Shown one piece after another: positions 3,308 through 20,297 of a stretch of DNA of 64,000 nt. The stretch is taken from positions 192,001-256,000 of the IMG/VR virus record IMGVR_UViG_2974506496_000001; one strand, written 5' to 3'. Source of the DNA: a virus. Lineage: Duplodnaviria; Caudoviricetes. The translations under genes were made by a program, and so were the position numbers. Position 1 is the stretch's first letter. Every line of letters begins with the position of its first letter. Under the pieces are notes generated by a model. The model made no database searches. It worked only from the letters and a program-made list of their open reading frames with translations, and was not told the DNA's origin.

Positions 3308-4078
3308 ATGGCTGGTCCACAGCGTCAATTTAAAGCTCGTGAAAAATCTTACTTGAGCGAGTACTCGATGAACCTTCAGGGCCCGGTGCAAGCTGGCGCT
3401 CAGTTCCCTGCTGAATTCCGCATGGCCTTTGCAGCCAACAAAGTGGCCATTCAGGTTGAAACCAAAAACCGCGATAACAAAAATAACGGTCGCTTTGAAA
3501 TCGTTGTTCCTTATCTGGGCGCTATCGGTGTGCTGAATACGATCGACAAGCTTATTCAGGACAAAGCACGCAGTAAGCTGCAATACAAAGTGAAAGACTT
3601 CGTTTACTTCGGTAAAGGTAACAAGTCTGACTCACCAATGATCAAAGGCACCCTGACTGTAGGGCGTGATAACGAAGGCTGTCTCTATATCGGCATGTCC
3701 GGTAAAGACATCACCCCAATCAAATTCATCTTCGCCCTGCCGGCGCATGATGAACTGTGCGATGACTCAGGTCAGCGTCTGGGTGATGCTGAGCACTCTG
3801 AGTTTGCTGCGAAGAACTTCGTGGTCGGTTACCTGGGTCTGCTGCCAGTGGTGATGGGTATTCACTATACCCCACCTGAACCGAAGAACCCAGATGGCGG
3901 TAATGGCGGTGGCGGTGGTCAAGGCGGTGGCGGCTGGGGCGGTAATGGCGGCGGGAACCGTGGCGGTGGTAATGGCGGGGGAAACCAGTACGGCCAAGGC
4001 GGCAATCAGGGCGGCGGGAACGCCTCTGGTTCTGGTAGCAGCGGCGGCGGTGACTTCGCAGATGACCTGCCTTTCTAA
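3308..4078 (+). CDS. Putative ssDNA-binding protein with Gly-rich linker and acidic DFADDLPF tail
   Basis: AAGGAG RBS; about 60-aa G/N-rich linker; C-terminus resembles the E. coli SSB tail DFDDDIPF. Confidence 0.6.
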   Translation: MAGPQRQFKAREKSYLSEYSMNLQGPVQAGAQFPAEFRMAFAANKVAIQVETKNRDNKNNGRFEIVVPYLGAIGVLNTIDKLIQDKARSKLQYKVKDFVYFGKGNKSDSPMIKGTLTVGRDNEGCLYIGMSGKDITPIKFIFALPAHDELCDDSGQRLGDAEHSEFAAKNFVVGYLGLLPVVMGIHYTPPEPKNPDGGNGGGGGQGGGGWGGNGGGNRGGGNGGGNQYGQGGNQGGGNASGSGSSGGGDFADDLPF

Positions 4079-5086: not shown

Positions 5087-6631
5087 ATGATGTTTAAGTA
5101 CACCACCAAATCGACCTCTGAGAAGGTATGGTTAAACACAATCATAGTTGTCAGTCGTCATGGCGAAGAGATTGTGTTTAACGAAAACAACTTCTTCAAG
5201 TCGGAAGAGAAGGACCACAAAGGAACCTTCGACGAACTGAATCTCTATCTCTTGCGTTGCCTGAGTAACGAGCAACGTGACCGGATGTTTGAGTTCTATA
5301 AGCAAATCAGCTATATCCTGAAAACGGAACTGTCGGTCACGAAGGTCCTTCTGCCAAAGTTGCAGCCTTTGGTTAAAGGGATCTACGACCTGGTTAGCTT
5401 AAGCGACCTGAACGTCTTCATGTATGAAAACAAACTGACGCACATTCCGAACAGCGTACTGGATACCATCCCGTCCTCGAAAGAGTACCCGACGATGACC
5501 ACGTATGTGAAAGCGGATTACGTTAAGCTGGTTAACCTGTCGGTGTTGTTGCATCTGATGGCGCCGATCATCGCGGACTATGTCAGCAAGGTCAGTGAGT
5601 CAACCGGCAAGCAGTTTAAAGAACACGCCGCCTTACCGTTACTGGAATACACCAACATCATGTATTCTGATGAGATGGTCAAGCTGCGTAACTTCGTGAC
5701 CGCCAACTGCAGTAAAAAGCCGGTGCCGTTATCAGCCACCTTAGAAGGGATGTCAGAAGAGTCGTTCCCGGATTGGATGCTGGCGTCGGTCATTGCACGT
5801 AAGCTGTGTATCAACCATGTACGGCGTGGGGATGAGAACGGACACCTGGTCGCTGCGGTGTTTGCCTACATCAACTACAACATCAAACTGGATGGTAAGT
5901 TTGGTGGCGGAGTCATGCCAAAGAAAGAGCGTCGGGGTCTGGGAGAAGATGAACGCGAGAAAGCGGTCATTGATAACTGGAAGATGAAAGAGGATGTGGA
6001 CAAGATCGATATCTTAGCCTGTGCTGTTGGCTTTGATGATCCGGTTGCTGCTGCCAAATTCATTGAGCCTGACATCGATCCAAACATGGTGATCCGTTGC
6101 CTGAATGCGATTCCACAAGCCTGGAACTTCAGCATGACTCGTCATCAGAGCATTCTGTTGCAGTGGGTAGTGGGTGAGCTTCTGCCGCATATCGGTGATA
6201 CGTATGTGCCGCCGTTGACCGTTGAGTATTACGATTACGATGTCTGCGTGAAGTTGGTCGGGATTGCACAAGCGGTACTGTGGCATCGGGGTTATCCGAA
6301 GCTTGCAGTGTTTGCTGCGACTTATCCGTCTGAAGTGGATGCCGGCGGGATGCCGAATGCCGTGATGCCATTAGAACTGAAAGTGATGGCAGAGCTGGAA
6401 GCGTATTACGGTAATGTGCGTCTGGGTAAACGTCAGGACAGCAGCGATGGCTTGGTGCATAAAACCATCAACACCATGGTTACCTCATTGTTAGAAGATG
6501 ATTATCAGGTCGTAGGCCCTGATGAATTGTTAGCGTTATCTGGGGTGGTAGATTTCGAACGTCGAATCGTCATTCCTGAAAGCCTATATTACGATATTGC
6601 TGGCTACATTCGTTTCTTAGCCACTCGTTAA
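5087..6631 (+). CDS. Non-virion RNA polymerase promoter-specificity subunit (phiKZ gp68-like)
   Basis: 514 aa; size and position (three co-directional genes upstream of nvRNAP beta-C) match phiKZ gp68. Called by synteny. Confidence 0.7.
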   Translation: MMFKYTTKSTSEKVWLNTIIVVSRHGEEIVFNENNFFKSEEKDHKGTFDELNLYLLRCLSNEQRDRMFEFYKQISYILKTELSVTKVLLPKLQPLVKGIYDLVSLSDLNVFMYENKLTHIPNSVLDTIPSSKEYPTMTTYVKADYVKLVNLSVLLHLMAPIIADYVSKVSESTGKQFKEHAALPLLEYTNIMYSDEMVKLRNFVTANCSKKPVPLSATLEGMSEESFPDWMLASVIARKLCINHVRRGDENGHLVAAVFAYINYNIKLDGKFGGGVMPKKERRGLGEDEREKAVIDNWKMKEDVDKIDILACAVGFDDPVAAAKFIEPDIDPNMVIRCLNAIPQAWNFSMTRHQSILLQWVVGELLPHIGDTYVPPLTVEYYDYDVCVKLVGIAQAVLWHRGYPKLAVFAATYPSEVDAGGMPNAVMPLELKVMAELEAYYGNVRLGKRQDSSDGLVHKTINTMVTSLLEDDYQVVGPDELLALSGVVDFERRIVIPESLYYDIAGYIRFLATR

Positions 6632-6666
6632 CTTAATTTAATCTACACCGTTAGGAGTCACCCAAG

Positions 6667-8184
6667 ATGTTACCTACCCAAAACATTCAGTTCGAAGGCT
6701 ATGTTGAGAAAGCTGCTATCTGCCGTACACCAGCTTATCAGGACATGTACCGTCGACCGTACAGCATGAATATCAGTCAGGACACCGCATCCGTTATTGG
6801 TAACATGAGTGCCGGTGTGGATTATTCTCGTGAGCGTTTAGCGCCGATTGCCGCATCGGTCATTGCGCCACAGACTTACGTTGAATCGGTTTGTAACGTA
6901 CCAGAGGGCTGGGGTTCTGAGCGTTGTCTCTTCATTCTGAAGATCGTTCACGGTCGTCCGGGTGACCAGGGTCTGAACAAACGTGTGCAGTATCTGACCG
7001 GCTACACCAGTCACATGGGCATGATGCCAAGTCAGATGCGTGCGAATGATGTTGTTGTTGATGACAACATGCGTCTGTTCTTTAACACCAGTATGCTGTT
7101 TAACGAAACCAGCCATATCGATGGCTATGGTCGTAAGCTCGTCACCGCCATGCCGTTGATGGCAAGTCAGTTGGTAATGGGTCAGCACGGCGGGGTGCAT
7201 GGTCATAACGATCGTACGTTGCGTCCTGAAGATGTTTACTCAGCAATCAATGTTGGGCAACTGATTCAGCAGAACAACCAGTATGATCAAAGCCGTGGTA
7301 CCAATGGTCCGATTGGTCAGCTGTATGATGGTCGTACTGCTTTCCAACCTGGTCAGCCGTATAAGCTTTCTCAGCTGAATAACCTGGTGCCTTCAAACTA
7401 CCTCAGTAAAGTGCTGACCGGTGCAGCCACCGAACAGCTGACCTTAGGTGGTCAACGTGCAAACCCAGCGGATACCAGCAATCAGATCGCAACTGGCCTG
7501 AACGAAGGTTATCTGTCTAACGACCTGACCCTACAGCACATCCTGGATCGCACTGGTCTGCGTGAAAACTGCTCAATCACATTTGGTGAATTGCGTCGTA
7601 TTCTGCCGAACATTGATGCACCGGGTATTTTGACCAAAGCGGGTATGGAAGGTGTCGGTACTGGTCAGGTTGCCGGTGCAGTAGGTGGTGCTGGTTCTGA
7701 ACATCATCAGGGTTCGAACTATGAAACCGTGATTGCCAACATGCTGAACAATGTGACCACTGCACTGATGATGGATCTGATGATCGGCGAGATTCATTGT
7801 AATGGCGGTAACATGACCGTAGCCGATGTGGCGACTGGTACAATGAGCGGTCAGTTCCTGTTGAACACGCCGTACGCAACTTCCTTCGTGGACGGTCGTG
7901 ATGCGGTGGCGTTGTGTGAATCGTTTAAGCTGCGTCTGGTGCGTGAGTTCCTGTCAAGCTTTACCGGCCACAACCACGTGCCAATCGGTTTTGCAATCCA
8001 TGCAAGTCTGATGGCCGAAACGGTTATTGATGTCTCTTACAATAACCAACCGAAGATTCGCTTCGTGTTCCCGGTCTTTGCGAACGCGTCCTATACCCCG
8101 ATTATCACTGGCGATCAGAACACTCTGAACTCCATTGCCGTACACACACGTGAACTGGTCCAGCAGCTGACCAACGTCTTTTAA
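6667..8184 (+). CDS. picA: Phage-nucleus protein import factor PicA/Imp1 (phiKZ gp69-like)
   Basis: 505 aa, AGGAG RBS, directly after the gp68-like gene as in phiKZ. Called by synteny and size; no catalytic motif to confirm. Confidence 0.6.
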   Translation: MLPTQNIQFEGYVEKAAICRTPAYQDMYRRPYSMNISQDTASVIGNMSAGVDYSRERLAPIAASVIAPQTYVESVCNVPEGWGSERCLFILKIVHGRPGDQGLNKRVQYLTGYTSHMGMMPSQMRANDVVVDDNMRLFFNTSMLFNETSHIDGYGRKLVTAMPLMASQLVMGQHGGVHGHNDRTLRPEDVYSAINVGQLIQQNNQYDQSRGTNGPIGQLYDGRTAFQPGQPYKLSQLNNLVPSNYLSKVLTGAATEQLTLGGQRANPADTSNQIATGLNEGYLSNDLTLQHILDRTGLRENCSITFGELRRILPNIDAPGILTKAGMEGVGTGQVAGAVGGAGSEHHQGSNYETVIANMLNNVTTALMMDLMIGEIHCNGGNMTVADVATGTMSGQFLLNTPYATSFVDGRDAVALCESFKLRLVREFLSSFTGHNHVPIGFAIHASLMAETVIDVSYNNQPKIRFVFPVFANASYTPIITGDQNTLNSIAVHTRELVQQLTNVF

Positions 8185-8198
8185 GGAAAAGATAAACC

Positions 8199-9743
8199 AT
8201 GACAACTCCACTTATTAACTATTACACGGGCTTCCTGGAATCGACGGGCGCTGTGATTGATCAGTCCACCGGTGTGGTGAGCTATGAACGTTCCACCGGT
8301 TTAAAGCCGGTGTTAATCGATGGCAAAGAGCTGATCCTACCCATCCGTGCGTTTCAGGATAAGCCGGACTGGACGCGTTATGTACCATTCCATCCGCTGT
8401 CTGAATCGATTGCTCGTGGTGAATCGGAAGTGCTGCAGAAAGCCAAAGAGCTGATCAGTCTGAAGCTGTTCCTGAAATATGCGGAACTGTCTGAAGCGCT
8501 GCTGATGCTGGCAGTGAACTCTGAATCGCAGGCGAAGCTCACCCCTACCCAGATGAAGTTCCTGGAAGGGCTGGGTGATGCGGATGAGAAAACGGTTGAG
8601 AACTTCTCAAAGATCCTGGCGAAATCCAAAGCGACCTTTGAAGGTGGTGAGAACCGTTGTCTGGTGTCGTTGTTCCTGAAACGTGGCGGTACACTCAACG
8701 GGCAGAAGTTTGCCCGTCTGTGTGTTGTAGCGTTCCCGTACTACGAAGCGCTGTGTAAGATCGAAAACGAACCTGCGGATAAGCGCGTGGTGTTTGGTGT
8801 GCCATTGCGTGCCAAAGACATCAAAGTGCTGAAGCGTCTGCATGAAGTGATCGTACCGAACAGCGATGACGGGATCTACTCGATCGGGACTAACGTACAG
8901 ACTGCGCCGTACTGGGGTGCATTGATGATGACTTACGTCAACATCCTGAACCAGTTCAACAGCGTAATCAAACCGTTCTCGAAAGTGATCAAATCGCTGA
9001 AGGCGGTTGATACCTCGTGGGATGTGGGTGATGAGTTGCAACAGTTCCGTGCTGAGATTCCACCGATGCCGTATAATGAAGGTGCAGATTCCAGCAAACC
9101 AGCTGAAACAACCCAGCCTCTGCAGACCCAACAGCAGCCTGTTGCGACGCAGCCACAAACCATCCCACAGCCAACCGGTAATCTGGTACAGCAGCCAGCA
9201 ACCATCCAGCAGGCGCCGAGCTTTAACGGTAATCAGAACCAGTCCAGCACAGTCACCCATCCGCCAGCTCACAACGTTAAACCATCTAACGGTGGCGGTG
9301 TGAACTTCGCTGATGCGATGAACAAGTCGGGCATGGGGATGATGCCACAAATGCAGATGCCAGGGATGATGCCACAGATGTATCCTCAGCAGGGTTACCC
9401 ACAGCAGCAGATGCCAATGTATCCGCAACAGCAAATGTATCCTCAGATGCAGATGCAAATGCCGATGCAGCAGCTTCCAATGCCACCGGTCTCTCAGCCG
9501 CAGGGTCAGCAGCAATTCCCGCAGCAGATGTATTATCAAAATGGTCAGTTGCCAATGCCGCCGGTTAGCCAGCAGCAACAGCAAGGTTACCCACAGCAGG
9601 GCATGTATCCTCAGCAGCAGATGATGCAGCCTCAAATGTACCCGCAGATGCAAATGCCTGGCATGATGCCACAAATGCAGATGCCGGGTATGATGCAGCA
9701 GGGTTACCCGCAACAGCCACAGATGTTCCAGTTCGGGCGTTAA
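8199..9743 (+). CDS. phiKZ gp70-position protein: folded N-domain plus long Q/P/M-rich low-complexity C-tail
   Basis: 514 aa; the last roughly 215 residues are dominated by Q, P, M, Y and G. Confidence 0.75.
   Translation: MTTPLINYYTGFLESTGAVIDQSTGVVSYERSTGLKPVLIDGKELILPIRAFQDKPDWTRYVPFHPLSESIARGESEVLQKAKELISLKLFLKYAELSEALLMLAVNSESQAKLTPTQMKFLEGLGDADEKTVENFSKILAKSKATFEGGENRCLVSLFLKRGGTLNGQKFARLCVVAFPYYEALCKIENEPADKRVVFGVPLRAKDIKVLKRLHEVIVPNSDDGIYSIGTNVQTAPYWGALMMTYVNILNQFNSVIKPFSKVIKSLKAVDTSWDVGDELQQFRAEIPPMPYNEGADSSKPAETTQPLQTQQQPVATQPQTIPQPTGNLVQQPATIQQAPSFNGNQNQSSTVTHPPAHNVKPSNGGGVNFADAMNKSGMGMMPQMQMPGMMPQMYPQQGYPQQQMPMYPQQQMYPQMQMQMPMQQLPMPPVSQPQGQQQFPQQMYYQNGQLPMPPVSQQQQQGYPQQGMYPQQQMMQPQMYPQMQMPGMMPQMQMPGMMQQGYPQQPQMFQFGR
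9341..9730 (+). repeat. Coding imperfect repeats (MPQMQMPGMM, YPQQ, QLPMPPVSQ)
   Basis: ATGCCACAAATGCAGATGCC occurs near 9342 and 9666; QLPMPPVSQ occurs twice; YPQ recurs many times. Confidence 0.85.
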
Positions 9744-9757
9744 TCTATAAATCTGAT

Positions 9758-9790
9758 CGGCATAAGGAGAGGCTACGGCCTCTCCTCTTT
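9758..9790. terminator. Bidirectional hairpin at a convergent junction, CGGCATAA on the left
   Basis: CGGCATA-AGGAGAGGC-TACG-GCCTCTCCT-CTTT. Confidence 0.8.
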
Positions 9791-9795
9791 CAGAG

Positions 9796-10131
9796 TCATT
9801 TTTTATTTGAGTTGTAGAGATCTCTAATAGATGACAGAAGTGAACTGTTTTCATCTATTAGAAGAATGTCCGTTGTAATGACATCCCATTTAAAGGGATT
9901 CATGATGTTGTTGATTCGCATAGTTAACCAATGCATGTGATAAGGAACGCCGTATTCCAGTAGTAGCATGCGAAAGTCACCACGTTCTTCGTACTGTTCA
10001 AGAGGGGTAGGGGGAGTAAACTTAGTTGCATTCGCCCGAAGCAAATCGAGATGATGCACCAGGACCTGACGAAAGCCGTGATCTTGAAACAGCTTATCGG
10101 TCGGGTGTTTGATTTCGTTGCTGACTCGCAT
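9796..10131 (-). CDS. Small protein with LysM/T4 gp53-like pattern (putative baseplate component)
   Basis: 111 aa; GDFRMLLLEYGVPYHMHWLTMRINNIMNP resembles the gp53/LysM helix-W-x4-N-x-I-x-[DN]P pattern; has a minus-oriented terminator. Confidence 0.5.
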   Translation of the reverse strand: MRVSNEIKHPTDKLFQDHGFRQVLVHHLDLLRANATKFTPPTPLEQYEERGDFRMLLLEYGVPYHMHWLTMRINNIMNPFKWDVITTDILLIDENSSLLSSIRDLYNSNKK

Positions 10132-10152
10132 ATGCGTAAATACCTATACTTG

Positions 10153-10169
10153 TTTAAGCCTATATTATC
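10153..10169 (+). promoter_or_regulatory. Candidate early promoter CCTATATTATC
   Basis: TTTAAGCCTATATTATC about 33 nt upstream of the nvRNAP beta ATG. Confidence 0.55.
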
Positions 10170-10201
10170 TCTTGGCAGTTAGGTTGATAAAAGGAATCAT
10201 A

Positions 10202-12313
10202 ATGAGTCATATTACCGAGGCAAGTGAACTCTCTGCAGAGTTGTTAGGCAGTGTGTTATGTTTGAACCCAACCGTACATGGCGATAGCAGCCCACGTTCT
10301 GCTATGTTCGGAGGTCATGCAGGACAGGCCGTGACAATCGAGGGTAGCACGCCACGTATGTTAAAAACCGGGATCGAGTATGAGTACGGTCAACGGACCT
10401 TCAAGATTGAAGCGCCGTGTCAGATGCTCGTGATCGGTGTGATTAACCGTTTCGTCACCAACCACGTTGGTACTGGGGGTGTGAAAGAGAACCCTGAGAA
10501 ATATGTGATCTATCAGAACTTAAGTGTAAATACGCCTACACCGACGTTCGGCATTCTGTGTATTCCGACCTATCACACACGTAACCACGCATTAGGGTTT
10601 AAGTATGTGATGGACAAGAAAGCAATTAACCGTTTGTACAGTGTTGATGGTAAGGCGTATATCGAAAAGGGTGTGATCTTTGCCCGTTCCCCTAACTTAA
10701 CCGAAGGTGGCGATTATAAGTACGGTCGTGAAACCAACGTAGCATTTATGTCATTACCGGAAGTCGAACAGGACGGAATGGTGGTAACAGAAAGCTTCGC
10801 ACAAGCCATGGCCTGTACCAAGATCGAAAGCCGTATCGCACAGTGGGGCGATGATCAGGTGTTGTTGAACCTGTATGGCGACGATGAGAACTACAAAGCG
10901 TTTCCGGATATCGGCGATAAGATTCGTGAAGATGGGATGTTGTTTGCGGTACGTAAGATCATGCCAGGTACTGGCATTGTCAATCTGACCCCAAAAGCCC
11001 TTCGTACTTACGATCCGAACTTCGACTATCCGCAGTATGCTGAAGCCGGTGCCACGGTGGTGAACGTCCAGGTGAACTCGGACCGCATGCGTACAGGACG
11101 TACCGATGTGCAGTTCTATGATAAACAAGCTGAACGGTATGAACGTGCAGCGCGTGAGTTCTCCAAGTCTCTGCGTAAGATCTACGACGACCTCTATCGT
11201 ACGTATGGTCATGGCATGATTCTGGAACCTGAACTCAACCGGATGGTGACGGATGCCATCTCGGATACCGGCGGTATGGATCGCAAGATGAATAATCAAG
11301 GACAGATTATCAGCGTGGACAAAGGCACACAGGTCTATAACAAAGTCCCGATTGGTGACTGGCGTGTGAAGATCACCTTTGTTAAACGGATTGAAGCCGG
11401 CGTGCGCTTTAAGATCACCGATACCCATGGCGGTAAAGGTGTTATCGTAAACGTGATTCCTGACGCCGATGCGCCGACCGATGATTACGGTAACCGGGCG
11501 GATGTGATCATGGATGATGTGTCGATTACCAAACGTATGAACCTGGGCAAGCCAACCGAGCAGTATATCAACGGTGCATCAGTATATGCAGCGAAGATTG
11601 CGCGCCAGATGGCAGCCAGCGGGGATCTGGATGGTGCCTGGAATCACCTCATGAGTTATTACCATGCAGCTGCGTATGAGCAATGGGAAATGATGCAATC
11701 ACCAACGTACCTGGATAACAAACCGAATCGCGATCATCATGTGCGTTGGGTGTGTGATCATGGTATTGAGTTGTTTGCACCAACTGACCGTCGCTACTTC
11801 GGGGCCGAGCAGGTACGGCGTATCATGAAGGAGCATGACTTCCCGGTTACACCCGTGACGTATCGTGCACCCGATGGGCGTATGGTCCGTACGCGTGATC
11901 CGGTGGTGATTGCGCCGATCTATATCATCCTGCTGGAAAAGATGGGCGAATACTGGGCGTCGTGTGCGATTCCAAAACTCACACACTTCGGTACACTCTC
12001 ATCCTTAACACAGGCGGATAAGTTTGCGTTGCCGTGGCGTAACACCCCAACCCGTTTCGGTGAGTCTGAGTTGCGTCTGTTCTTAGCAGCGTGTCGTGGC
12101 TATTATGCGAACCGCCTGCAAAGCATGGCGAACACTCCGGCGATGCAGAAGGAAGCTGCATTGATGTTCTTGCGTCACGATACACCAATGAACATCCCGA
12201 ACGTGATTGATGAAACGAAGACACCACTGGGGCGTGCACGTCCATTGCAGATGTATAAGCATAACCAGGGCTGTCGTGGTATTGAGTTTGAAACAACCGT
12301 GTTAAATAAATAA
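10202..12313 (+). CDS. Non-virion RNA polymerase beta subunit, C-terminal part (phiKZ gp71/73-like)
   Basis: RpoB motifs KITDTHGGKGVI, DVIMDDVSITKRMNLG and RFGESE. Start moved to ATG 10202 (AAAGGAA RBS). Confidence 0.9.
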   Translation: MSHITEASELSAELLGSVLCLNPTVHGDSSPRSAMFGGHAGQAVTIEGSTPRMLKTGIEYEYGQRTFKIEAPCQMLVIGVINRFVTNHVGTGGVKENPEKYVIYQNLSVNTPTPTFGILCIPTYHTRNHALGFKYVMDKKAINRLYSVDGKAYIEKGVIFARSPNLTEGGDYKYGRETNVAFMSLPEVEQDGMVVTESFAQAMACTKIESRIAQWGDDQVLLNLYGDDENYKAFPDIGDKIREDGMLFAVRKIMPGTGIVNLTPKALRTYDPNFDYPQYAEAGATVVNVQVNSDRMRTGRTDVQFYDKQAERYERAAREFSKSLRKIYDDLYRTYGHGMILEPELNRMVTDAISDTGGMDRKMNNQGQIISVDKGTQVYNKVPIGDWRVKITFVKRIEAGVRFKITDTHGGKGVIVNVIPDADAPTDDYGNRADVIMDDVSITKRMNLGKPTEQYINGASVYAAKIARQMAASGDLDGAWNHLMSYYHAAAYEQWEMMQSPTYLDNKPNRDHHVRWVCDHGIELFAPTDRRYFGAEQVRRIMKEHDFPVTPVTYRAPDGRMVRTRDPVVIAPIYIILLEKMGEYWASCAIPKLTHFGTLSSLTQADKFALPWRNTPTRFGESELRLFLAACRGYYANRLQSMANTPAMQKEAALMFLRHDTPMNIPNVIDETKTPLGRARPLQMYKHNQGCRGIEFETTVLNK

Positions 12314-12320
12314 GGGGTGT

Positions 12321-14291
12321 GTGATGCAAAGCTATCATTGGCGTGATCTGTTGTCGATGTCTGAGGAGCAGATTTGGCAACTTGATCCTGCAATCAACAA
12401 CCCAATCATTGAAGTGGTGGCAGAGGATGCCACCTTCAAGATTCCTGCCCGACAGGTTATCGGTAGCTGGTATTGCTGGCCGTTTCAAAAGCTCTATCGC
12501 AACATGGTGTTGTGTAAGCGTCATTTCATCACAGCGTTTCGTCTGTCGAACAAAACCATCCTGGGGATCATGACCAACGGTTATCGTGATTATGATGCGA
12601 TGATGAACGGCACTATCTTAGATGTCGTGGCATTAAACAGCTTGATTGCGAAAACGGCGAACCGCATTAACAATGCGTTTGTCACCAAGATCCCAGAGTA
12701 TGTCACGACCTCGGGCATGAAGCAGTATATTGAAATCGTGGATGACCCTGAGTTTAAAGCGATTCGTGATGCAATGGAACCTAACCAGAACTCGATTCGT
12801 GATGGTTATGATGCGTCACTCAAACTGCTGATGGACCCGAAGAAGTATGTCGGTAATCAGGTGGCGGAGTATGTGAAGCAAGGATCAGCATCAGCAGGCC
12901 AGGCATTACAATGTCTGGTGGTGCGTGGTTATCTGACTGACCATAACTCGCGTATCTTTGTTAAGCCGGTCATGGGTAACTATGTCGAAGGGCTGGGTAA
13001 GTTCTACGACTCGTTCGTGGAATCACGCTCAGCAACCAAAGCGGCGTTGTTTACCAAGAAACCCCTGGAAGACTCCGAATGGTTTAACCGTAAAATGCAG
13101 CTGGTTGCACAAGCGGTGCAGAAGATCCATCTGGGGGAGGATTGTGGGTCGACGATAACAGTGCCTATTGTTATGCGTCGTGGCTGGGCAAGTGCGATGG
13201 CCGGTACGTATTATCTGGATGATGATGGATCGTACAAAATGATCACGGAAGAGGACAAGCATCTGGAGAACCGGTTACTCAATATCCGCTCTCCGATGTA
13301 TTGTAATCATCCTGACCGTACCGGTATCTGTGAGCGGTGTTATGGGAAGTTAGCGGTATCCATTCCGTACTTCAATGTCGAAGGGAAAGTTGGGGATAAC
13401 CAGGTGATCGTGGGGCACGTCAGTGCAACGGAAATCGGTGAGGATCTCTCACAGAAGATGCTGTCAACCAAACACCTGGATACGTCCTCGACGGTAGATC
13501 CGTTTGCTATTCGTCGTGCCGATGCGTTGTATGTGAAACCAGGCTTGCGTGAAAACGCCATTCGCCTGAATCCACGTCTGCGTAATGAAAAGGTCACGAT
13601 GAAGGTATCTTTCGACAAAACTACCGCATTATCTGATATCGCAGTTGCCGAAAACTTAGATGAAGTAGCAACGCGTGTTTCCGGTTTCAATGAGATCGTG
13701 CTGGAGTTTGAGCGTGAAGATGGGGGTAAAGAGTCTATCCCAATCAACACCACCCAGGGTTCTCGTCAGGGTCAATTCACTGTCGACTTCCTGCGTTACT
13801 TGCAGCGCGTAAGCTGGACGAGTGCGGACAAAGATTATATCTCTATCCGTCTGGATCAATTTGAATATGATTGCGATGTGGTTGAATTGCCGTTAGTGCA
13901 TGAAGACATGATGGCGTATCAGAAACAGATTGAATCCTACATCCGTTTCAGTAAGGAATCAGCGAATTGGAAAAACAAGTTTGTCACGCCGGATGAAGTG
14001 GGTGTGGTACTGGATGAGTTCTTCTCGTTACTGCGTCAGCGTTTGGGTGTGAACATTGTTCATGCACAGATCATGCTGTATTCAGTGATGACCATGGACC
14101 CAGCCAAAGGCGACTATCGTCTTCCGCGGGCGTATGAACCACGGCAGTTCTCTTCCTATCACGAATGTATCGAGTACCGTTCTCTCTCGGTCCAGCTCGT
14201 GTATCAGGAACAGGCTGCGGTGATGCTGAAGCCGTCCACTTTCCTCAATGACAAACGACAACCGCACCCGATGGATGAAATCTTCAAATAA
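12321..14291 (+). CDS. Non-virion RNA polymerase beta' subunit, C-terminal part (phiKZ gp74-like)
   Basis: RpoC motifs DCGS, RSPMYC...GICERCYG (Zn site) and trigger-loop-like VGHVSATEIGEDLSQKMLSTKH. Confidence 0.9.
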   Translation: MMQSYHWRDLLSMSEEQIWQLDPAINNPIIEVVAEDATFKIPARQVIGSWYCWPFQKLYRNMVLCKRHFITAFRLSNKTILGIMTNGYRDYDAMMNGTILDVVALNSLIAKTANRINNAFVTKIPEYVTTSGMKQYIEIVDDPEFKAIRDAMEPNQNSIRDGYDASLKLLMDPKKYVGNQVAEYVKQGSASAGQALQCLVVRGYLTDHNSRIFVKPVMGNYVEGLGKFYDSFVESRSATKAALFTKKPLEDSEWFNRKMQLVAQAVQKIHLGEDCGSTITVPIVMRRGWASAMAGTYYLDDDGSYKMITEEDKHLENRLLNIRSPMYCNHPDRTGICERCYGKLAVSIPYFNVEGKVGDNQVIVGHVSATEIGEDLSQKMLSTKHLDTSSTVDPFAIRRADALYVKPGLRENAIRLNPRLRNEKVTMKVSFDKTTALSDIAVAENLDEVATRVSGFNEIVLEFEREDGGKESIPINTTQGSRQGQFTVDFLRYLQRVSWTSADKDYISIRLDQFEYDCDVVELPLVHEDMMAYQKQIESYIRFSKESANWKNKFVTPDEVGVVLDEFFSLLRQRLGVNIVHAQIMLYSVMTMDPAKGDYRLPRAYEPRQFSSYHECIEYRSLSVQLVYQEQAAVMLKPSTFLNDKRQPHPMDEIFK

Positions 14292-14305
14292 GTAAGAGGT
14301 TGGCG

Positions 14306-15853
14306 ATGCGCAATACTGCGACAATCACTATCAATAGTCACGGCTTTACAGTCTCTGATTATAATAGTGAGTTCTACGAGAAGTTGAAGTTGTATTGCGC
14401 TCGTTTTGTCAAAACAAAAATGGTCTCTAAGGTCGTCCATGGACGGAGGATCTTGGCTAAAGAAAATGACCGTGTTTTTGCGAGCGCTCTAAGCAACCGT
14501 CGAGAGATCCGCTTTCACATCAACTGCTATGAAGAGTTCAAACGTCATATGCAGCAGTGGGGATATAATGTCTCCCGCTTTAAGGAAGTGCGAACACCAA
14601 TTCCAGAAGGCAAAGATGCTAACTTCGAATTCAAGTTCGAAGGTGTGCAGCCCCGTGAGCATCAAGTGGAATGGTTGGAGTACCAGTTAAATAAAGACCA
14701 GGGTGAAGTCACCACAAAGATCAATACCTTGCAAACCGGTAAGGGGAAGAGCTTCTGTGGTATTTACAACATGGTCAAGCTGGGAAAAGTAACGGTCATT
14801 GTCATCATGCCAAAATACATTAATACGTGGATTGTGGCGCTGAATGACTTTGTCAAGTTAGGTGAGAATGACATCATGGTGGTGCAAGGCTCAGGTGAAC
14901 TCAACGGCTGCATGAAGTTGGCTGAAGAAGGTAAACTTGAATCCCGCATCATTATTATCAGTCTCCCCACCTTCCAATATTACATGTCGGAGTATGAAGA
15001 TAACAACGGCGTGATGACGCATTACAACTACACACCTGATCAATTCTGGGCAATGATCCAACCCGGGTTCCTCATTGTCGATGAAGGCCATGAGTCAATC
15101 CACGCGCTGTTCAAGTTCGACCTTTACACCCATGTCAAAAATAAACTGGTACTCTCGGCCACCCTTGAGGCGGATGACCAGTTTATTAACGACATGTACT
15201 TTGTCATCTACCCGAATAAAATCAGGTTCCGTGGTGGCGAGTATGATAAGTACATCGAAGCGATTGCCTTGATGTATGGACTGGTGAGTAATAAGAAGGT
15301 CAAGACCAAAGGCTTCGGCGGGACGTATAACCACGTCAAGTTTGAGCAAAGCATCATGAAAGACAAGCAGCTGTTGAAGACGTACCTTACGCTCATCAAC
15401 AAGGTGTTCTCCTTCTTCTTTATTAAAGTGAAGGAACCTGAACAACGCTGTCTCATTTATTGTGCCACGGTCGAGATGTGTTTGTACGTGACGGATTATC
15501 TGAGCACTATCCATGATACCCTGATCGTGCGTAAGTATACCCAGGAAGACCCGAAAGAATCGTTGTATGAATCTGACGTGAGTGTTTCGACACTGAAGTC
15601 AGCCGGTACCGGTGTGGATATCCCAGGACTCCGCACTTGCATCATGACGATCGCGATTGGGTCACGGCAAGCCAGTGATCAGGCATTGGGGCGACTGCGG
15701 CGGTTGAAAGACTACCCGGACACTATCCCGACGTTTGTTTACTTCGCCTGCACGGGTATCGAAGCACACATGAAATACCACAGCAAGAAACTCGAACTCT
15801 TCCCAGTGAAGACGTTGAGTCTGCGTGAGGTGAACAGCGGCTTCTCGTTATAA
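14306..15853 (+). CDS. SF2 DExH helicase (phiKZ gp75-like)
   Basis: Motifs LQTGKGKS, IVDEGH, LSAT, GTGVDIPGL and QALGRLRR. Confidence 0.9.
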   Translation: MRNTATITINSHGFTVSDYNSEFYEKLKLYCARFVKTKMVSKVVHGRRILAKENDRVFASALSNRREIRFHINCYEEFKRHMQQWGYNVSRFKEVRTPIPEGKDANFEFKFEGVQPREHQVEWLEYQLNKDQGEVTTKINTLQTGKGKSFCGIYNMVKLGKVTVIVIMPKYINTWIVALNDFVKLGENDIMVVQGSGELNGCMKLAEEGKLESRIIIISLPTFQYYMSEYEDNNGVMTHYNYTPDQFWAMIQPGFLIVDEGHESIHALFKFDLYTHVKNKLVLSATLEADDQFINDMYFVIYPNKIRFRGGEYDKYIEAIALMYGLVSNKKVKTKGFGGTYNHVKFEQSIMKDKQLLKTYLTLINKVFSFFFIKVKEPEQRCLIYCATVEMCLYVTDYLSTIHDTLIVRKYTQEDPKESLYESDVSVSTLKSAGTGVDIPGLRTCIMTIAIGSRQASDQALGRLRRLKDYPDTIPTFVYFACTGIEAHMKYHSKKLELFPVKTLSLREVNSGFSL

Positions 15854-15863
15854 ACTGACTGTG

Positions 15864-15900
15864 TAAAAGACCAGGGGGCTTACTCCTTGGTCTTTTATGC
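15864..15900 (+). terminator. Hairpin with TTTTATGC tail
   Basis: AAAAGACCAGGGGG-CTTA-CTCCTTGGTCTTTT then ATGC. Confidence 0.75.
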
Positions 15901-15937
15901 TTTCTTTCCTTTTCTTTTTGTTAAGGATACACAGCTT

Positions 15938-16264
15938 ATGAATGGTAACCGACCAGTAATGGTGATTGGCGGCATGGGGTTGAGTCCTGCATTGATTGAG
16001 CGCTTACGGCAGTTAGACGACCTGGAGATCAAGTTGGTGGCCGATGTGGCAATCAGCGATATCCTGGAGTTTGAACCGGGTTATGCTCGCGGCTTGGTTC
16101 AGGCGATTCAGCATCAGCAACAACGTGAGTGGAATCCCTTCCGGGAAAGCTACTGGGATAACTTCATTACCCTGCGACGTAAAGAAGTCAACGGACATAC
16201 CCGCATTCCTCCCAAGAAAGCCACCTGCAGCTCCCGTCGTAAGGGACGGAGGTTCAAGGGATGA
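15938..16264 (+). CDS. Hypothetical protein, basic C-terminus
   Basis: Start moved to ATG 15938 (AAGGA RBS). Confidence 0.6.
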   Translation: MNGNRPVMVIGGMGLSPALIERLRQLDDLEIKLVADVAISDILEFEPGYARGLVQAIQHQQQREWNPFRESYWDNFITLRRKEVNGHTRIPPKKATCSSRRKGRRFKG

Positions 16265-16584
16265 GCGAGATCGATTATCGTGCATTGAAGTATTGTGTCA
16301 CCAAGGTTAGTCGGCGTATCCGCGACGGGGATTCCCGTAACGCGTCACGTTGCCTCTTCCAGTATGTTGAGACGCACGCCGCATTACAAGACATGGCCGC
16401 CATTGATCGTCTTTTAGCACAGTGCCGAGAAAATAAGGTACCCCTAAAAGAGATCAACAAAGTCTCGTTACTGCGTGCATGCTCATGTTTACGCCCCCAC
16501 CTTACAGAGTATCAGTCGTGTATGGACCTGTGGCGCCAGGACATTAAAGCGGCGGGTATGGAAAACTTATTAATAGGATTGTGA
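16261..16584 (+). CDS. Hypothetical protein
   Basis: ATGA overlap with the upstream stop. Confidence 0.6.
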   Translation: MSEIDYRALKYCVTKVSRRIRDGDSRNASRCLFQYVETHAALQDMAAIDRLLAQCRENKVPLKEINKVSLLRACSCLRPHLTEYQSCMDLWRQDIKAAGMENLLIGL

Positions 16585-16585
16585 T

Positions 16586-16948
16586 ATGTCTGATTATTGT
16601 GCGGATATCTTTAAAGCGATCAGTTGCAAAACCCCCACCAAAGGCAGTGAACTCTACATCGATGATTTCGGTGATCTGTGGATGTTGATTCCCAAGCTTA
16701 ACCGCTTCGGTGAGCAGTCAGTGTTTCGTCAGTATGCCGGTAACCTTGCGTTGATGGCTGACCGCGGGCAGATGTATCAGGGTCAGTTATATGTGTGTGA
16801 GTTGATCCCGGGATATCACTTGGTGTTAACCAACCAAGCCGTGATGGTCAACCAATACAGCCTGGTGCAGTATGTGAAGACCCGTGCTGCGAAAGTGGAA
16901 GCGCGCTACCGTAAGAAACCCAAGCCGATGAGCCGAGCTTACGCGTAA
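16586..16948 (+). CDS. Hypothetical protein
   Basis: 120-aa ORF in operon context, AGGA RBS. Confidence 0.6.
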   Translation: MSDYCADIFKAISCKTPTKGSELYIDDFGDLWMLIPKLNRFGEQSVFRQYAGNLALMADRGQMYQGQLYVCELIPGYHLVLTNQAVMVNQYSLVQYVKTRAAKVEARYRKKPKPMSRAYA

Positions 16949-16978
16949 GCAACCTGACTGACAAGAAAGGATAGACCT

Positions 16979-17488
16979 ATGTTCGAATGGTTCTCTGTGT
17001 TATTGATGAAGTGGTTGACCCGAAAGGAAAAGAAACACAACAGGACAGTGCGGGTAGAACCGGTGGTGTTTGAACCGCAACTCAAACCCACCCCGCAGCC
17101 GTTGAGTAACGCGTTAAAAGAAGAAGCGCAGCAGATTCGGGACACCCTGCTGTTTGAGTCGCCGTTGAATAAATCCCGACCGATCCCGACCAAACCCACC
17201 TTACGGGTAGTAAGACCCAGTACAAGCTCCTCACGCCCACACGGTAAGGCGAACGATGACAGCATGCTAACACATGCCTTATTGATGCAGCAGGTGTTAG
17301 CAGACGATACAGCGCCGTCTGATCGTCATCATCGTACCCATGCCCCTCAGGATAACCACCGCCATGAAGACCGACCCTCGTACCATTCCACGCCCACTCA
17401 TCATAGCAGTTCTAGTAGTAGTCGCGATGATGATAACGGGAGTAATGATTACAGTAGCGGACCTAGTGACAGCGGTTCGTCTGATTAA
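16979..17488 (+). CDS. Hypothetical protein with hydrophobic N-terminus and Ser/Asp/His-rich tail
   Basis: AAGGA RBS; ends SSSSSRDDDNGSNDYSSGPSDSGSSD. Confidence 0.65.
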   Translation: MFEWFSVLLMKWLTRKEKKHNRTVRVEPVVFEPQLKPTPQPLSNALKEEAQQIRDTLLFESPLNKSRPIPTKPTLRVVRPSTSSSRPHGKANDDSMLTHALLMQQVLADDTAPSDRHHRTHAPQDNHRHEDRPSYHSTPTHHSSSSSSRDDDNGSNDYSSGPSDSGSSD

Positions 17489-17527
17489 TACCCTCGATTA
17501 ACCTTACGTAATAAGGAACGCCTCACC

Positions 17528-18385
17528 ATGACAGATCCCCACCCCATTCTCGCCGCAGCCATCGGAGAGCCCCAGGATGACGATTGCTGGGATTTTCCGG
17601 GCGAGACTGTTGTTGGTCACGGCGACTTGATGTACACCAACATCCATAAGCCTCAGGCATTATGGAACGGTGTTATCCGGTCACTGCGAAAACGTTTCCT
17701 TACTGAACCATCAATTAACCAAAAGGATACTTGTATGACCGAGCAATACAAGCCATCGCCTGACACCGGCTACCAAAACCTTTTCTGTGAGCCCGATGTT
17801 CTCAACACAAACGACCGAATTTATCCCCGCAAGAGTCTGGTAGCCTTACTGGAGAAATTCCCCTCCGATAATTTTCGTGGAACACCCGCAGTTCGCTATC
17901 CTTTTATGCGCCGTCTGGCGGTGTTGTTTAAGATAGCGTTCTTACAGACCAGCCTTGACCAGAAAGCTTTATCCTTGAATACACGCCAGACCGGTAAACC
18001 ACGGATCACGCAACATTCATTAACTAGTATCTGTAATTTAATGCACCAGCTGCATTATGAGCTCAGAGAGCTTCAGTATCAGAACCCCAATCCGATTGAC
18101 CTGACCCGTTATGCAAGGCTGTTGAAGTGGGAAGCTGTAAAGACGGAAAAACCAGAGTGGCTTACATCCCTGGATGCAATTGAGTCACGCACCAAGTATA
18201 GCCGTCCGTTTGATGAAGATGTGGCGCATATGTACCTGAACCCCATAATGCCGATTCATAGACAAATTCAGGCGATGGAGCTTTTACCGGATTTGTTTGT
18301 GCCAACCAATCCTAAGTTCGGTAAAGCACTCACAGAACAACTCAACCGTGAAGCGCTGATTGCGCCACGCAAGCGCAGAGGTTAA
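17528..18385 (+). CDS. Hypothetical protein
   Basis: 285 aa, TAAGGA RBS; an internal ATG at 17735 also has an AAGGA RBS. Confidence 0.6.
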   Translation: MTDPHPILAAAIGEPQDDDCWDFPGETVVGHGDLMYTNIHKPQALWNGVIRSLRKRFLTEPSINQKDTCMTEQYKPSPDTGYQNLFCEPDVLNTNDRIYPRKSLVALLEKFPSDNFRGTPAVRYPFMRRLAVLFKIAFLQTSLDQKALSLNTRQTGKPRITQHSLTSICNLMHQLHYELRELQYQNPNPIDLTRYARLLKWEAVKTEKPEWLTSLDAIESRTKYSRPFDEDVAHMYLNPIMPIHRQIQAMELLPDLFVPTNPKFGKALTEQLNREALIAPRKRRG

Positions 18386-18387
18386 TC

Positions 18388-19527
18388 ATGGCACTGGATC
18401 AAGAGTATTATGAAAAGGCATTGGGTGTCCTACTGACCAAAGGCTTCTCTAACCAAGAAGCTGACCAGATCGCCACCACGCTTTCGGTATATCTCCCGAT
18501 GCGTTTCATCAAAGCTGGTGTATGGGCACTCATGCCTTACGACCAGCATCCGGCTGATCCCCTGGCATTTAAACACATGCGGCTACTTGACCGTATCCCT
18601 GAGTTAAAGAAACCAGTGATCCTTCAAATGCCGACTGACTTTACTTACACCACGTATGGTCAGGAGTATTGCCCTGGTGCTGACTCGCCGGTATACACCA
18701 CAGGACCCGATGGCTATACACATCATCCGGTTGGTTGGGAAAGTGGCATTACTGGCATGCCAGGCGTAATGGGTCCGGCTGGGGATGACAATATTGAAGT
18801 CAGTGATCTGACCTGTGATCACCCCCAAAGCGATTTTAGACTATCGTTACCTGCCGAATCAATGGCTAGTCAGTTTACCGTTGTCATGCGGGTTGGTGGT
18901 AAGGCTATTAAAATGACGCTGGAAGAACTCATCCAGGAAATTGGAGGTTATGACAAACTTCCTGCTTCTGCACGTGCTGCGATTGATCGTGTCATGGAAG
19001 AGCATCGCAATGCCCCTGTAACTACTGTATCTGTGCGTACACCCTTACCAGGCGGAGTATCTCAGGATCAAGCTGACTATCTGAAACTGGGCGACCTCAG
19101 CGACATCGAAGGGATCAAACGGGCTTACCCGATCATCGACGAGAAAACAGCTGAACGGATGTCTAAGTTGCATTGTCAGCTTAATCAGCATATCGCGCGG
19201 GTTCATCGTGAGCCGAGAGACGTTGAGGTATTTGATCTGCTTGCGGGCGATCACTCTCAGCGGATATTCCAATCTCGTCATGCTAAACGTCAGTACCCAA
19301 ACAGTTTGTTTGAGAAGTTCCTGCCGGATCAAGCAGACATCGATGAACCCGAGGGCATGACTGTTAAAATCAAAACTCACAGCATACGTCACTTCGGTCA
19401 CGGTCTTGAAATTAGCACGCCGTTGTTTGGTCAATCCCACAAAAACCCTACGGGACCACAAACCATGCCGGGGCTTGAGAAAGGCCGTGATGGTAAACGT
19501 AAACGTAATAAGAAGGGCAGACGATGA
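18388..19527 (+). CDS. Hypothetical protein, basic C-terminus
   Basis: 379-aa ORF, GAGG RBS. Confidence 0.65.
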   Translation: MALDQEYYEKALGVLLTKGFSNQEADQIATTLSVYLPMRFIKAGVWALMPYDQHPADPLAFKHMRLLDRIPELKKPVILQMPTDFTYTTYGQEYCPGADSPVYTTGPDGYTHHPVGWESGITGMPGVMGPAGDDNIEVSDLTCDHPQSDFRLSLPAESMASQFTVVMRVGGKAIKMTLEELIQEIGGYDKLPASARAAIDRVMEEHRNAPVTTVSVRTPLPGGVSQDQADYLKLGDLSDIEGIKRAYPIIDEKTAERMSKLHCQLNQHIARVHREPRDVEVFDLLAGDHSQRIFQSRHAKRQYPNSLFEKFLPDQADIDEPEGMTVKIKTHSIRHFGHGLEISTPLFGQSHKNPTGPQTMPGLEKGRDGKRKRNKKGRR

Positions 19528-20297
19528 TCGATCGCAGTTTTGAAGGTGGCTGGGAGTCTATACTGCAATGGCATGGGTTTGCTGATCGTGCTAAACAGGG
19601 GCTGTCTGAGCACTTTGTTATCGTGGATTACGGAACCCTGGCAGAGGCCGCCGCTTTTGAGCAATTGACAGCGCTGGCGGAGAAAGTGAAGTATGTCTCA
19701 GTCGAGCGAGTTAAAGCCGTTGACTTTACCCCGACGCTTGTACGTACGCTACATGAACGTGAACATGGCTGGCATTACTGTCATGTCATGGGGCGATGTG
19801 GTTACGGCGGCCACGGGATAATGATCGGTGCTAATGGCGGCTGGACAGGCGCGCACGGCGGTGCAGGTGATGCAGGCCCGCCCTCAACACCTGATGATGG
19901 CTCGATACTATACCAGACAGATTACAGTAGTCTCGGTATCCAGGACCGAGGATTTACTACACTGCAAGACATGATGGAAAACGCCAGCCCTTACGATTAC
20001 CCTCGGGAGATTCGTATAGTAGGGGATCGGCATGACCCGGATGTCAAAGCGTTAACGCAGGCAGTGATAAAGCTTGTTGGGCGTCGAGCTATCAAAGTAG
20101 TTAACATACCGCATGCCGACATGATGTATAGACCCGGCCCGCACCGAACGTATAACCTCGCGCCGGAGAAATACCGGGAGCGATTTGACATTGCTTATAA
20201 ACAAGCATTAGAAAATCTCAACAAGGCGGCCATCCTGCCGTATGCCCGTGGACCATTGCAGTCTGTTCTGGCATCAAAGCGCAAGAAACACTTTTAA
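19524..20297 (+). CDS. Hypothetical protein with internal Gly-rich segment
   Basis: 257 aa, ATGA overlap. Confidence 0.65.
   Translation: MIDRSFEGGWESILQWHGFADRAKQGLSEHFVIVDYGTLAEAAAFEQLTALAEKVKYVSVERVKAVDFTPTLVRTLHEREHGWHYCHVMGRCGYGGHGIMIGANGGWTGAHGGAGDAGPPSTPDDGSILYQTDYSSLGIQDRGFTTLQDMMENASPYDYPREIRIVGDRHDPDVKALTQAVIKLVGRRAIKVVNIPHADMMYRPGPHRTYNLAPEKYRERFDIAYKQALENLNKAAILPYARGPLQSVLASKRKKHF

Follow-up and report, generated by a model that had tools for sequence, protein, structure and literature searches.

Why does a phage encode a long, almost uncharged, prion-like tail directly after its nuclear import factor? The question is raised by the gene at 8199-9743 in a stretch of 64,000 nucleotides (IMG/VR record IMGVR_UViG_2974506496_000001, positions 192,001 to 256,000; hereafter the window), which belongs to a jumbo phage genome of 271 kb (G000). 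The gene product is an orthologue of phiKZ gp70. An earlier reading of the same DNA (the original prediction) had proposed that its tail forms a condensate or a selective barrier at the shell of the phage nucleus. Here, the tail was found to share peptide words with a distant protein of the same genome that belongs to the phiKZ gp124 (JADA) family, and such matched words recur in many related genomes. From these comparisons, we put at roughly one in two the chance that a self-cohesive gp70 tail co-condenses gp70 with JADA, and partly with chimallin, at the forming nucleus. The features on which the argument draws are the following (aa, amino acids; ORF, open reading frame; AF2, AlphaFold2; pLDDT, predicted local distance difference test).

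8199..9743, + strand: orthologue of phiKZ gp70, PhiPA3 gp64 and Goslar gp173, 514 aa (phrog_3520, E 4.5e-147; BLASTP; tblastn; annotation)
8199..9095, + strand: folded alpha/beta domain, aa 1-299 (AF2 pLDDT 97; conservation; structure searches)
9096..9296, + strand: aromatic-poor Q/P/T/S linker, aa 300-366 (composition; AF2)
9297..9326, + strand: short amphipathic motif GVNFADAMNK, aa 367-376 (family pattern G-[LVI]-[DS]-[FW]-x-[DSE]-[VLI]-[VML])
9336..9740, + strand: prion-like Q/M/P/G/Y tail, aa 380-514, with 13 spaced aromatics and one charge (composition; AF2)
9588..9632, + strand: 15-residue peptide YPQQGMYPQQQMMQP, aa 464-478 (exact match to aa 17-31 of the JADA-family ORF G000:C1:2926-5409)
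6667..8184, + strand: PicA/Imp1 orthologue (phiKZ gp69), nuclear import factor (phrog_3141; BLASTP; gene order)

Peptide Words Shared by the gp70 Tail and JADA

The partner is an ORF of 827 aa that lies outside the window (G000:C1:2926-5409), placed after nvRNAP gp123. It shares the 15-residue peptide exactly, and the next best match of the tail among 199 ORFs of the genome spans 6 residues. The longest match was 10 in 2000 shuffles, and the maximum from Markov sequences was 12-13 (2000 each). At the DNA level, 38 of 45 bases are identical, and all 7 differences fall at third codon positions. The partner's family was assigned by gene order and profile. phiKZ gp124 aligns end to end with JADA of PDB 9RP3, and a gp124-family profile built without the clade of G000 ranked the ORF first of 278 (E 5e-8); its pairwise match to phiKZ gp124/9RP3 had an E value of 0.003. 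PhiPA3 gp124 entered the comparisons only through its annotated piece of 261 aa, and the profile work did not include it. Its locus (L023:4849-6955) holds this piece and an opposite-strand ORF, possibly through a sequencing frameshift. A VWA assignment from the ESM Atlas for the JADA-like C-terminal part (0.81) was within the chance range and was rejected.

Is the shared peptide peculiar to this genome? The gp70 tail was paired with JADA of the same genome in 22 phages. The longest shared peptide averaged 6.8 residues in cognate pairs versus 4.1 in non-cognate pairs (permutation p 5e-5, by four measures), and the cognate JADA ranked first in 9 of the 22. Controls in 18 phages (tail versus gp123, tail versus gp122, and gp70 core versus JADA) were not significant. 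Within the five-phage clade of G000, the observed score was reached by the true pairing alone (1 of 120 permutations). Seven held-out phages, chosen afterwards and compared over the first 440-480 aa of each JADA, gave 28 and 16 of 5040 permutations (p about 0.005) and added a W/G dialect; their gp123 control gave 4803 and 4824 of 5040.

The words themselves differ from phage to phage. Both partners carry QQQMYPGMMPQMQM in AH06, PQFQPQFQQP in Proteus phage 10, RDRDYDRDDR in RSL2, NNPF repeats in SNUABM_38 and GGLLGGG in Kwan, and arginine/aspartate (R/D) gp70 tails accompany R/D-rich JADA segments. JADA was the best-matching ORF for the gp70 tail in all six genomes scanned. In RSL2, it scored 13 versus 5 for the best other ORF listed and 6 for chimallin. 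The tail of the ChmC encoded in the window, a neighbour of gp70, scored 3 against the gp70 words, compared with 15 for JADA. Since the same words are kept in two unlinked genes while changing between close relatives, the two segments are under a common constraint, of which cohesion of like with like is the simplest form.

Could the match be a by-product of mutation? Slippage and gene conversion may homogenise the words of two repeat-rich genes, with the tails serving as spacers. Such an origin is consistent with a 29-nt exact DNA match in Psa21, with the internal repeats of the tail of G000, one pair of which is identical at 28 of 30 bases, and with the lack of a match in about half of the phages. 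Against it, the codons under shared peptides (12 phages pooled) were identical at 46 of 91 positions versus 43.5 expected from usage. Synonymous identity is near random while the peptides are intact, and so the shared words are mostly not recent DNA copies. Other repeat-rich genes, such as ChmC, have not been homogenised, and the phiKZ gp70 gene, tail included, lacks tolerated insertions (PMC12676376). A purely mutational origin is considered quite improbable.

The Tail and Its Variation Across the Family

The 135 residues of aa 380-514 include 47 Q, 30 M, 26 P, 11 G and 10 Y, and the sole charged residue is the final R. Their complexity is 2.54 bits versus 4.10 bits for aa 1-295. By our own composition score (not PLAAC), the tail holds the top polar, uncharged 80-aa window among the 199 ORFs of at least 150 aa in G000, and it is prion-like in being rich in Q/N/G/Y, low in charge and complexity, and spaced with aromatics. 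AF2 predicted coil beyond about aa 300 (pLDDT 36-62), that is, predicted disorder. The original prediction had described about 295 ordered residues, a linker and about 135 nearly uncharged residues, which agrees with a pLDDT of 97 up to aa 299 and the single charge that follows in aa 380-514. The repeats it had listed were recovered as well: MPQMQMPGMM twice (PQMQMPGMM three times), YPQQ six times, QLPMPPVSQ twice, and the terminus MFQFGR.

The family was represented by 159 sequences, comprising the 8199-9743 product, phiKZ gp70 and 157 database matches, the best of 1651 clusters. One sequence with a 17-aa tail (P0015, perhaps truncated) was excluded from tail statistics, hence n = 158. Absence of the tail from most orthologues had been named as an outcome that would speak against a tail function. 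In 158 of 159 sequences, a tail of 111-298 residues extends past the conserved NEG core end. Over the final 80 residues, median charge is 5% and median aromatic content 11%; charge is at most 10% in 135 of 158 tails, aromatics reach at least 8% in 128, and Met reaches at least 15% in only 21. The tail as such is thus family-wide, as had been supposed, whereas its Q/M/P/Y make-up is lineage-specific. Across the family, the chemistry varies among Q/M/Y, W/G/N, NNPF, GGLL and R/D mixed charge, the last with 53-71% charged residues in 5 of 29 named phages. Q/M/Y prion-like chains and R/D mixed-charge chains share little except the capacity to self-stick, and R/D repeats drive condensates. The R/D switch fits cohesion better than any single motif.

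Does the tail act as a barrier instead? The original prediction had likened it to the phenylalanine-glycine (FG) nucleoporins, and a selective barrier of this kind could act with PicA at the site of import. A gp70-family gene directly follows PicA in every annotated locus examined at gp70, most members have a cohesive, aromatic-studded, uncharged tail, and the orthologue gp64 was localised to the shell (PMC10643120). FG is nevertheless scarce: it is missing from 82 of 158 tails, occurs at least three times in 10 and only once in the 8199-9743 product, and the R/D tails are fully charged. phiKZ Imp1/PicA bound gp67, not gp70, in reciprocal pull-downs, and gp70 was absent from the import genes recovered by selection, in the passages covered (10.1101/2024.03.27.586873). 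The scarcity of FG and the negative pull-down leave both the nucleoporin analogy and a partnership with PicA weak, and the latter is contradicted beyond gene order. Of the condensate or barrier first proposed, condensation remains plausible and fits the R/D switch, while an FG-type barrier is very improbable.

A conserved short motif at aa 367-376 had been overlooked. It divides the tail into an aromatic-poor linker before it and an aromatic-rich end after it. Its regular expression matches 81 of 158 tails (shuffled mean 4.0, maximum 11), its score is 2006 versus 867-892 when shuffled, and it matches only 9 of 29 named phages. In 95 of 158 sequences the tail ends with I, L or V, versus a frequency of 5.8% for these residues in the preceding tail. 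In the full-length AF2 model, the motif is not docked on gp70's own core (pLDDT under 50). The start of JADA carries the motif in 12 of 29 cases versus a shuffled mean of 3.6 and maximum of 9, a weak signal that was not used as support. The JADA-like protein L006:2926-5409 has IDFDSVM near aa 315-321, which is compatible with the motif.

These conserved positions suggest another role, in which the motif and the hydrophobic last residue would dock into pockets of chimallin, in the manner of chimallin's own tail, with the low-complexity part as a flexible tether. gp64 was found at the shell and in ChmB pull-downs (PMC10643120). Chimallin of G000 (phrog_4795; L007:3697-5832 = G000:C1:181696-183831) is extended at its N-terminus by about 100 aa rich in Q and P and also contains a Q/M loop, and RSL2 chimallin ends R/D-rich, as does the RSL2 gp70 tail. 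The phage's own chimallin was the best chimallin match to the gp70 tail in two of six genomes and tied best in two more. However, in none of the six did chimallin score above half of the JADA value, the regular expression misses 20 of 29 named phages, and docking leaves the exact peptides shared with JADA unexplained. As the sole role of the tail, anchoring to the shell is unlikely; it can coexist with gp70-JADA co-condensation.

Localisation, Expression and Essentiality

What is known of gp70 in infected cells comes from its orthologues. PhiPA3 gp64 was shown to localise to the nuclear shell and was recovered in ChmB pull-downs (PMC10643120); the shell placement put forward for the tail had thus already been published for this orthologue. 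Goslar gp173 was reported to be nucleus-localised and carries the nickname 'Taileboi' in figure legends; a deletant without residues 1-120 took a passenger domain into the nucleus, in a construct left ambiguous by a legend that also cites residues 1-30 (10.64898/2026.10.01.755736). The nickname and the wording 'inactive deletant' suggest that unpublished work on gp173 is under way. At 5 min, phiKZ gp70 ranks within the top 50 phage genes by expression (PMC12571901 supplement).

Might the shared words then be an address label? On this view, the gp70 tail and its JADA counterpart would not bind each other; both would carry one phage-specific signal, read by a third protein, be it PicA or a different factor of import or of the shell. 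This accounts for the matched drift equally well. The gp173 deletant that carried a passenger to the nucleus, ambiguous as its construct is, points the same way (10.64898/2026.10.01.755736), and import determinants have been reported to vary between phage species (PMC12908238). The same source describes import signals as folded-protein surfaces, and Imp1/PicA did not pull down gp70. Moreover, a single reader would have to switch from Q/M/Y to R/D chemistry, and other nuclear proteins such as gp123 are without the words. We regard a shared label as unlikely.

The phiKZ gp70 gene was nearly devoid of transposon (Tn) insertions in Tn-seq data, with 1 insertion and 3 reads after filtering (5 and 8 unfiltered), compared with 14 insertions and 6273-20005 reads for gp39 and gp2 (PMC12676376 supplements; files were assigned to tables from the methods text). 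gp124 had 0 insertions (PMC12676376). The tail-coding part of phiKZ gp70 contains 29 TA sites. By Tn-seq, phiKZ gp70 resembles essential genes, and gp70 and JADA are apparently both essential. Knockdown of phiKZ gp124 (JADA) was reported to have a strong effect on phage transcription.

The Folded Domain

The product of 8199-9743 matches phiKZ gp70 at 30% identity (E 1e-40, BLASTP), and its place in the gp70 family rests on homology of the folded domain and on its location, with PicA on one side and the nvRNAP beta gene on the other. Residues 1-299, predicted as ordered (AF2 pLDDT 97), are 100% identical to proteins in six Agricanvirus-type Erwinia phage records. Family matches were found in 261 of 50,697 phage records and in 1651 clusters among 1.84 billion representatives, and a pattern scan of IMG/VR for the gp70-type gene returned 2 loci. 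In the core, the motif FHPxxE..ES is near-invariant and about 15 Lys/Arg positions are conserved, among them those of a K161/R162/R173 hairpin, yet the net charge of the core is near zero.

The core is without a clear solved relative. Pfam has no family for the product, and Foldseek against the PDB gave zero matches at E<=0.001. Three candidates were rejected: the best hit of a PDB profile search (E 0.067) was low-complexity noise, the best of 48,161 chains in VIA-align (Z 5.4) was a designed helical bundle, and Sec16 features in the ESM Atlas (0.84) were within the chance range. In BFVD, 13 phage proteins matched at E<=0.001 over most of the domain. Many dsRBD/HPF-like matches (alpha-beta-beta-beta-alpha), mostly within aa 70-270, reached Z 3.3-3.9 with a root-mean-square deviation of 3.4-5.5 over 63-97 residues, below the tool's meaningful range; this likeness is weak and a lead only.

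A Proposed Role for gp70 and JADA

gp70 would act early, and probably as an essential protein, in organising the phage nucleus. The folded domain may hold a nucleic acid or protein partner, as its conserved basic residues suggest. The disordered tail would stick like-with-like: to its own copies, to the low-complexity JADA segment with matching words and, more weakly, to the floppy ends of chimallin. In this way the three proteins could be gathered in a condensed hub where the nucleus or shell is forming. We infer binding, condensation and the role as hub from the architecture, the family-wide tail and the matched drift observed here, together with the localisation, early expression and transposon intolerance reported by others. 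Because the stickiness would be homotypic, the words may be free to drift (Q/M/Y, W/G/N, R/D) so long as both partners drift jointly, and the match could be maintained if DNA is copied and selection then acts on the peptide. A stronger form, a tentative possibility, is a private co-evolving condensate code: words matched between gp70, JADA and, in part, chimallin would make these proteins co-condense and so seed or organise the nucleus, and the code could flip between prion-like and R/D chemistry.

Several observations weigh against this co-condensation. No peptide match was found in phiKZ, Goslar, PhiPA3 and five EL-group phages (ranks 8-20 of 22), the EL group gave 70-84 of 120 permutations, Goslar ranked last among the 22 by composition, and the match was also missing from 3 of 7 held-out phages. 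Overall, the match is absent in about half of the phages. For the R/D group, the observed score was attained in 2-5 of 24 permutations; matching there may thus reflect shared ancestry. The phages are related to one another and the permutation statistics ignore kinship; the 150 database homologues, the best of 1651 clusters, are likewise mutually related. In Psa21, 8 of 8 codons are identical, and DNA copying does occur. A direct PDB search with the partner ORF yields no 9RP3, and the link to JADA consists of gene order and the profile match. The Tn-seq depletion may be polar, and the one insertion in gp70 may lie anywhere in the gene. For PHIKZ070, two antisense oligomers were tabulated with a blank score, and the hits do not include gp70 (PMC12571901).

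The gp70 gene, its location and condensation by the neighbouring ChmC were known beforehand. In the literature passages covered, neither a function, a tail analysis nor a link to gp124 was found for gp70, gp64 or gp173, and gp70 is unmentioned in the covered parts of the PicA paper and of a 2025 review. No publication was found on the gp70 tail or on its matched drift with gp124, in a survey that left several relevant papers and supplements outside. New here is the match between the tail words of gp70 and JADA, which suggests a specific pair in seeding or organising the phage nucleus. The matched drift predicts that cognate tails co-condense and complement, that foreign ones do not, and that a double swap rescues. 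If the proposal is true, these phages offer a natural experiment in condensate grammar, and the code could keep each phage's nucleus separate during co-infection.

Gene Neighbourhood

The locus reads SbcD-like nuclease, gp66-like gene, ChmC, sigma-like gp68, PicA, gp70, nvRNAP beta, beta-prime and helicase, with ChmC and gp68 named by position. The upstream gene had been called PicA-like, and its product matches phiKZ gp69 at 24% identity over 501 aa (E 3e-37, BLASTP) in an identical gene order; as had been noted, 8199-9743 starts 14 nt past its stop. ChmC (window 3308-4078) ends in a G/N-rich stretch and an acidic tip, DFADDLPF, and ORFs at the matching position end in DFDDDIPF in Proteus phage 10 and DFDDISF in RSL2. 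This acidic tip resembles the C-terminal tip through which bacterial SSB recruits partners.

Downstream, a small antisense-strand gene (phrog_3455, window 9796-10131, - strand) is kept at this place in many relatives; its phiKZ counterpart, PHIKZ070.01, had zero filtered Tn insertions (PMC12676376). Between 8199-9743 and this convergent ORF stands a hairpin, GGAGAGGC-TACG-GCCTCTCC (window 9758-9785), preceded by the reverse complement of TTATGCCG. A scan for promoter and terminator consensus sequences was at chance level, and the hairpin was not among its matches. Elsewhere in the window, a 169-aa ORF (16979-17488) ends with a His/Ser/Asp-rich low-complexity tail.

Comparison with Known Systems

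The closest counterparts are phiKZ gp70, PhiPA3 gp64 and Goslar gp173, which are equal to 8199-9743 in gene, position and architecture; the tail studied here is longer and more Met/Tyr-rich than that of phiKZ gp70. ChmC (phiKZ gp67, PhiPA3 gp61), an RNA-binding protein with an N/G-rich tail, resembles gp70 in its gene block, its folded domain with a low-complexity tail and its association with the shell, and differs in fold and tail words. It was reported to form condensates, its tail being required for droplets. JADA (phiKZ gp124) has gp70-tail words in its low-complexity segment in many genomes. It is a separate, distant gene, and no homology to the gp70 core was found.

Among eukaryotic proteins, FG-nucleoporins are disordered, cohesive and placed at a nuclear boundary, as proposed for the gp70 tail. 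The gp70 tail differs in having no FG repeat array and no conserved chemistry, besides the negative PicA pull-down in phiKZ. FUS/FET-type prion-like domains share with it spaced aromatics in a polar, uncharged chain, and prion-like domains of different proteins have been reported to co-condense (PMC10850361). There is no homology to FUS/FET, and the gp70 tail is Met/Pro-rich rather than Ser/Gly-rich. Unlike eukaryotic prion-like or R/D domains, the tails of the gp70 family flip their chemistry within one family, in step with a partner. The family thus provides a rare series in which one protein family exchanges very different condensate chemistries.

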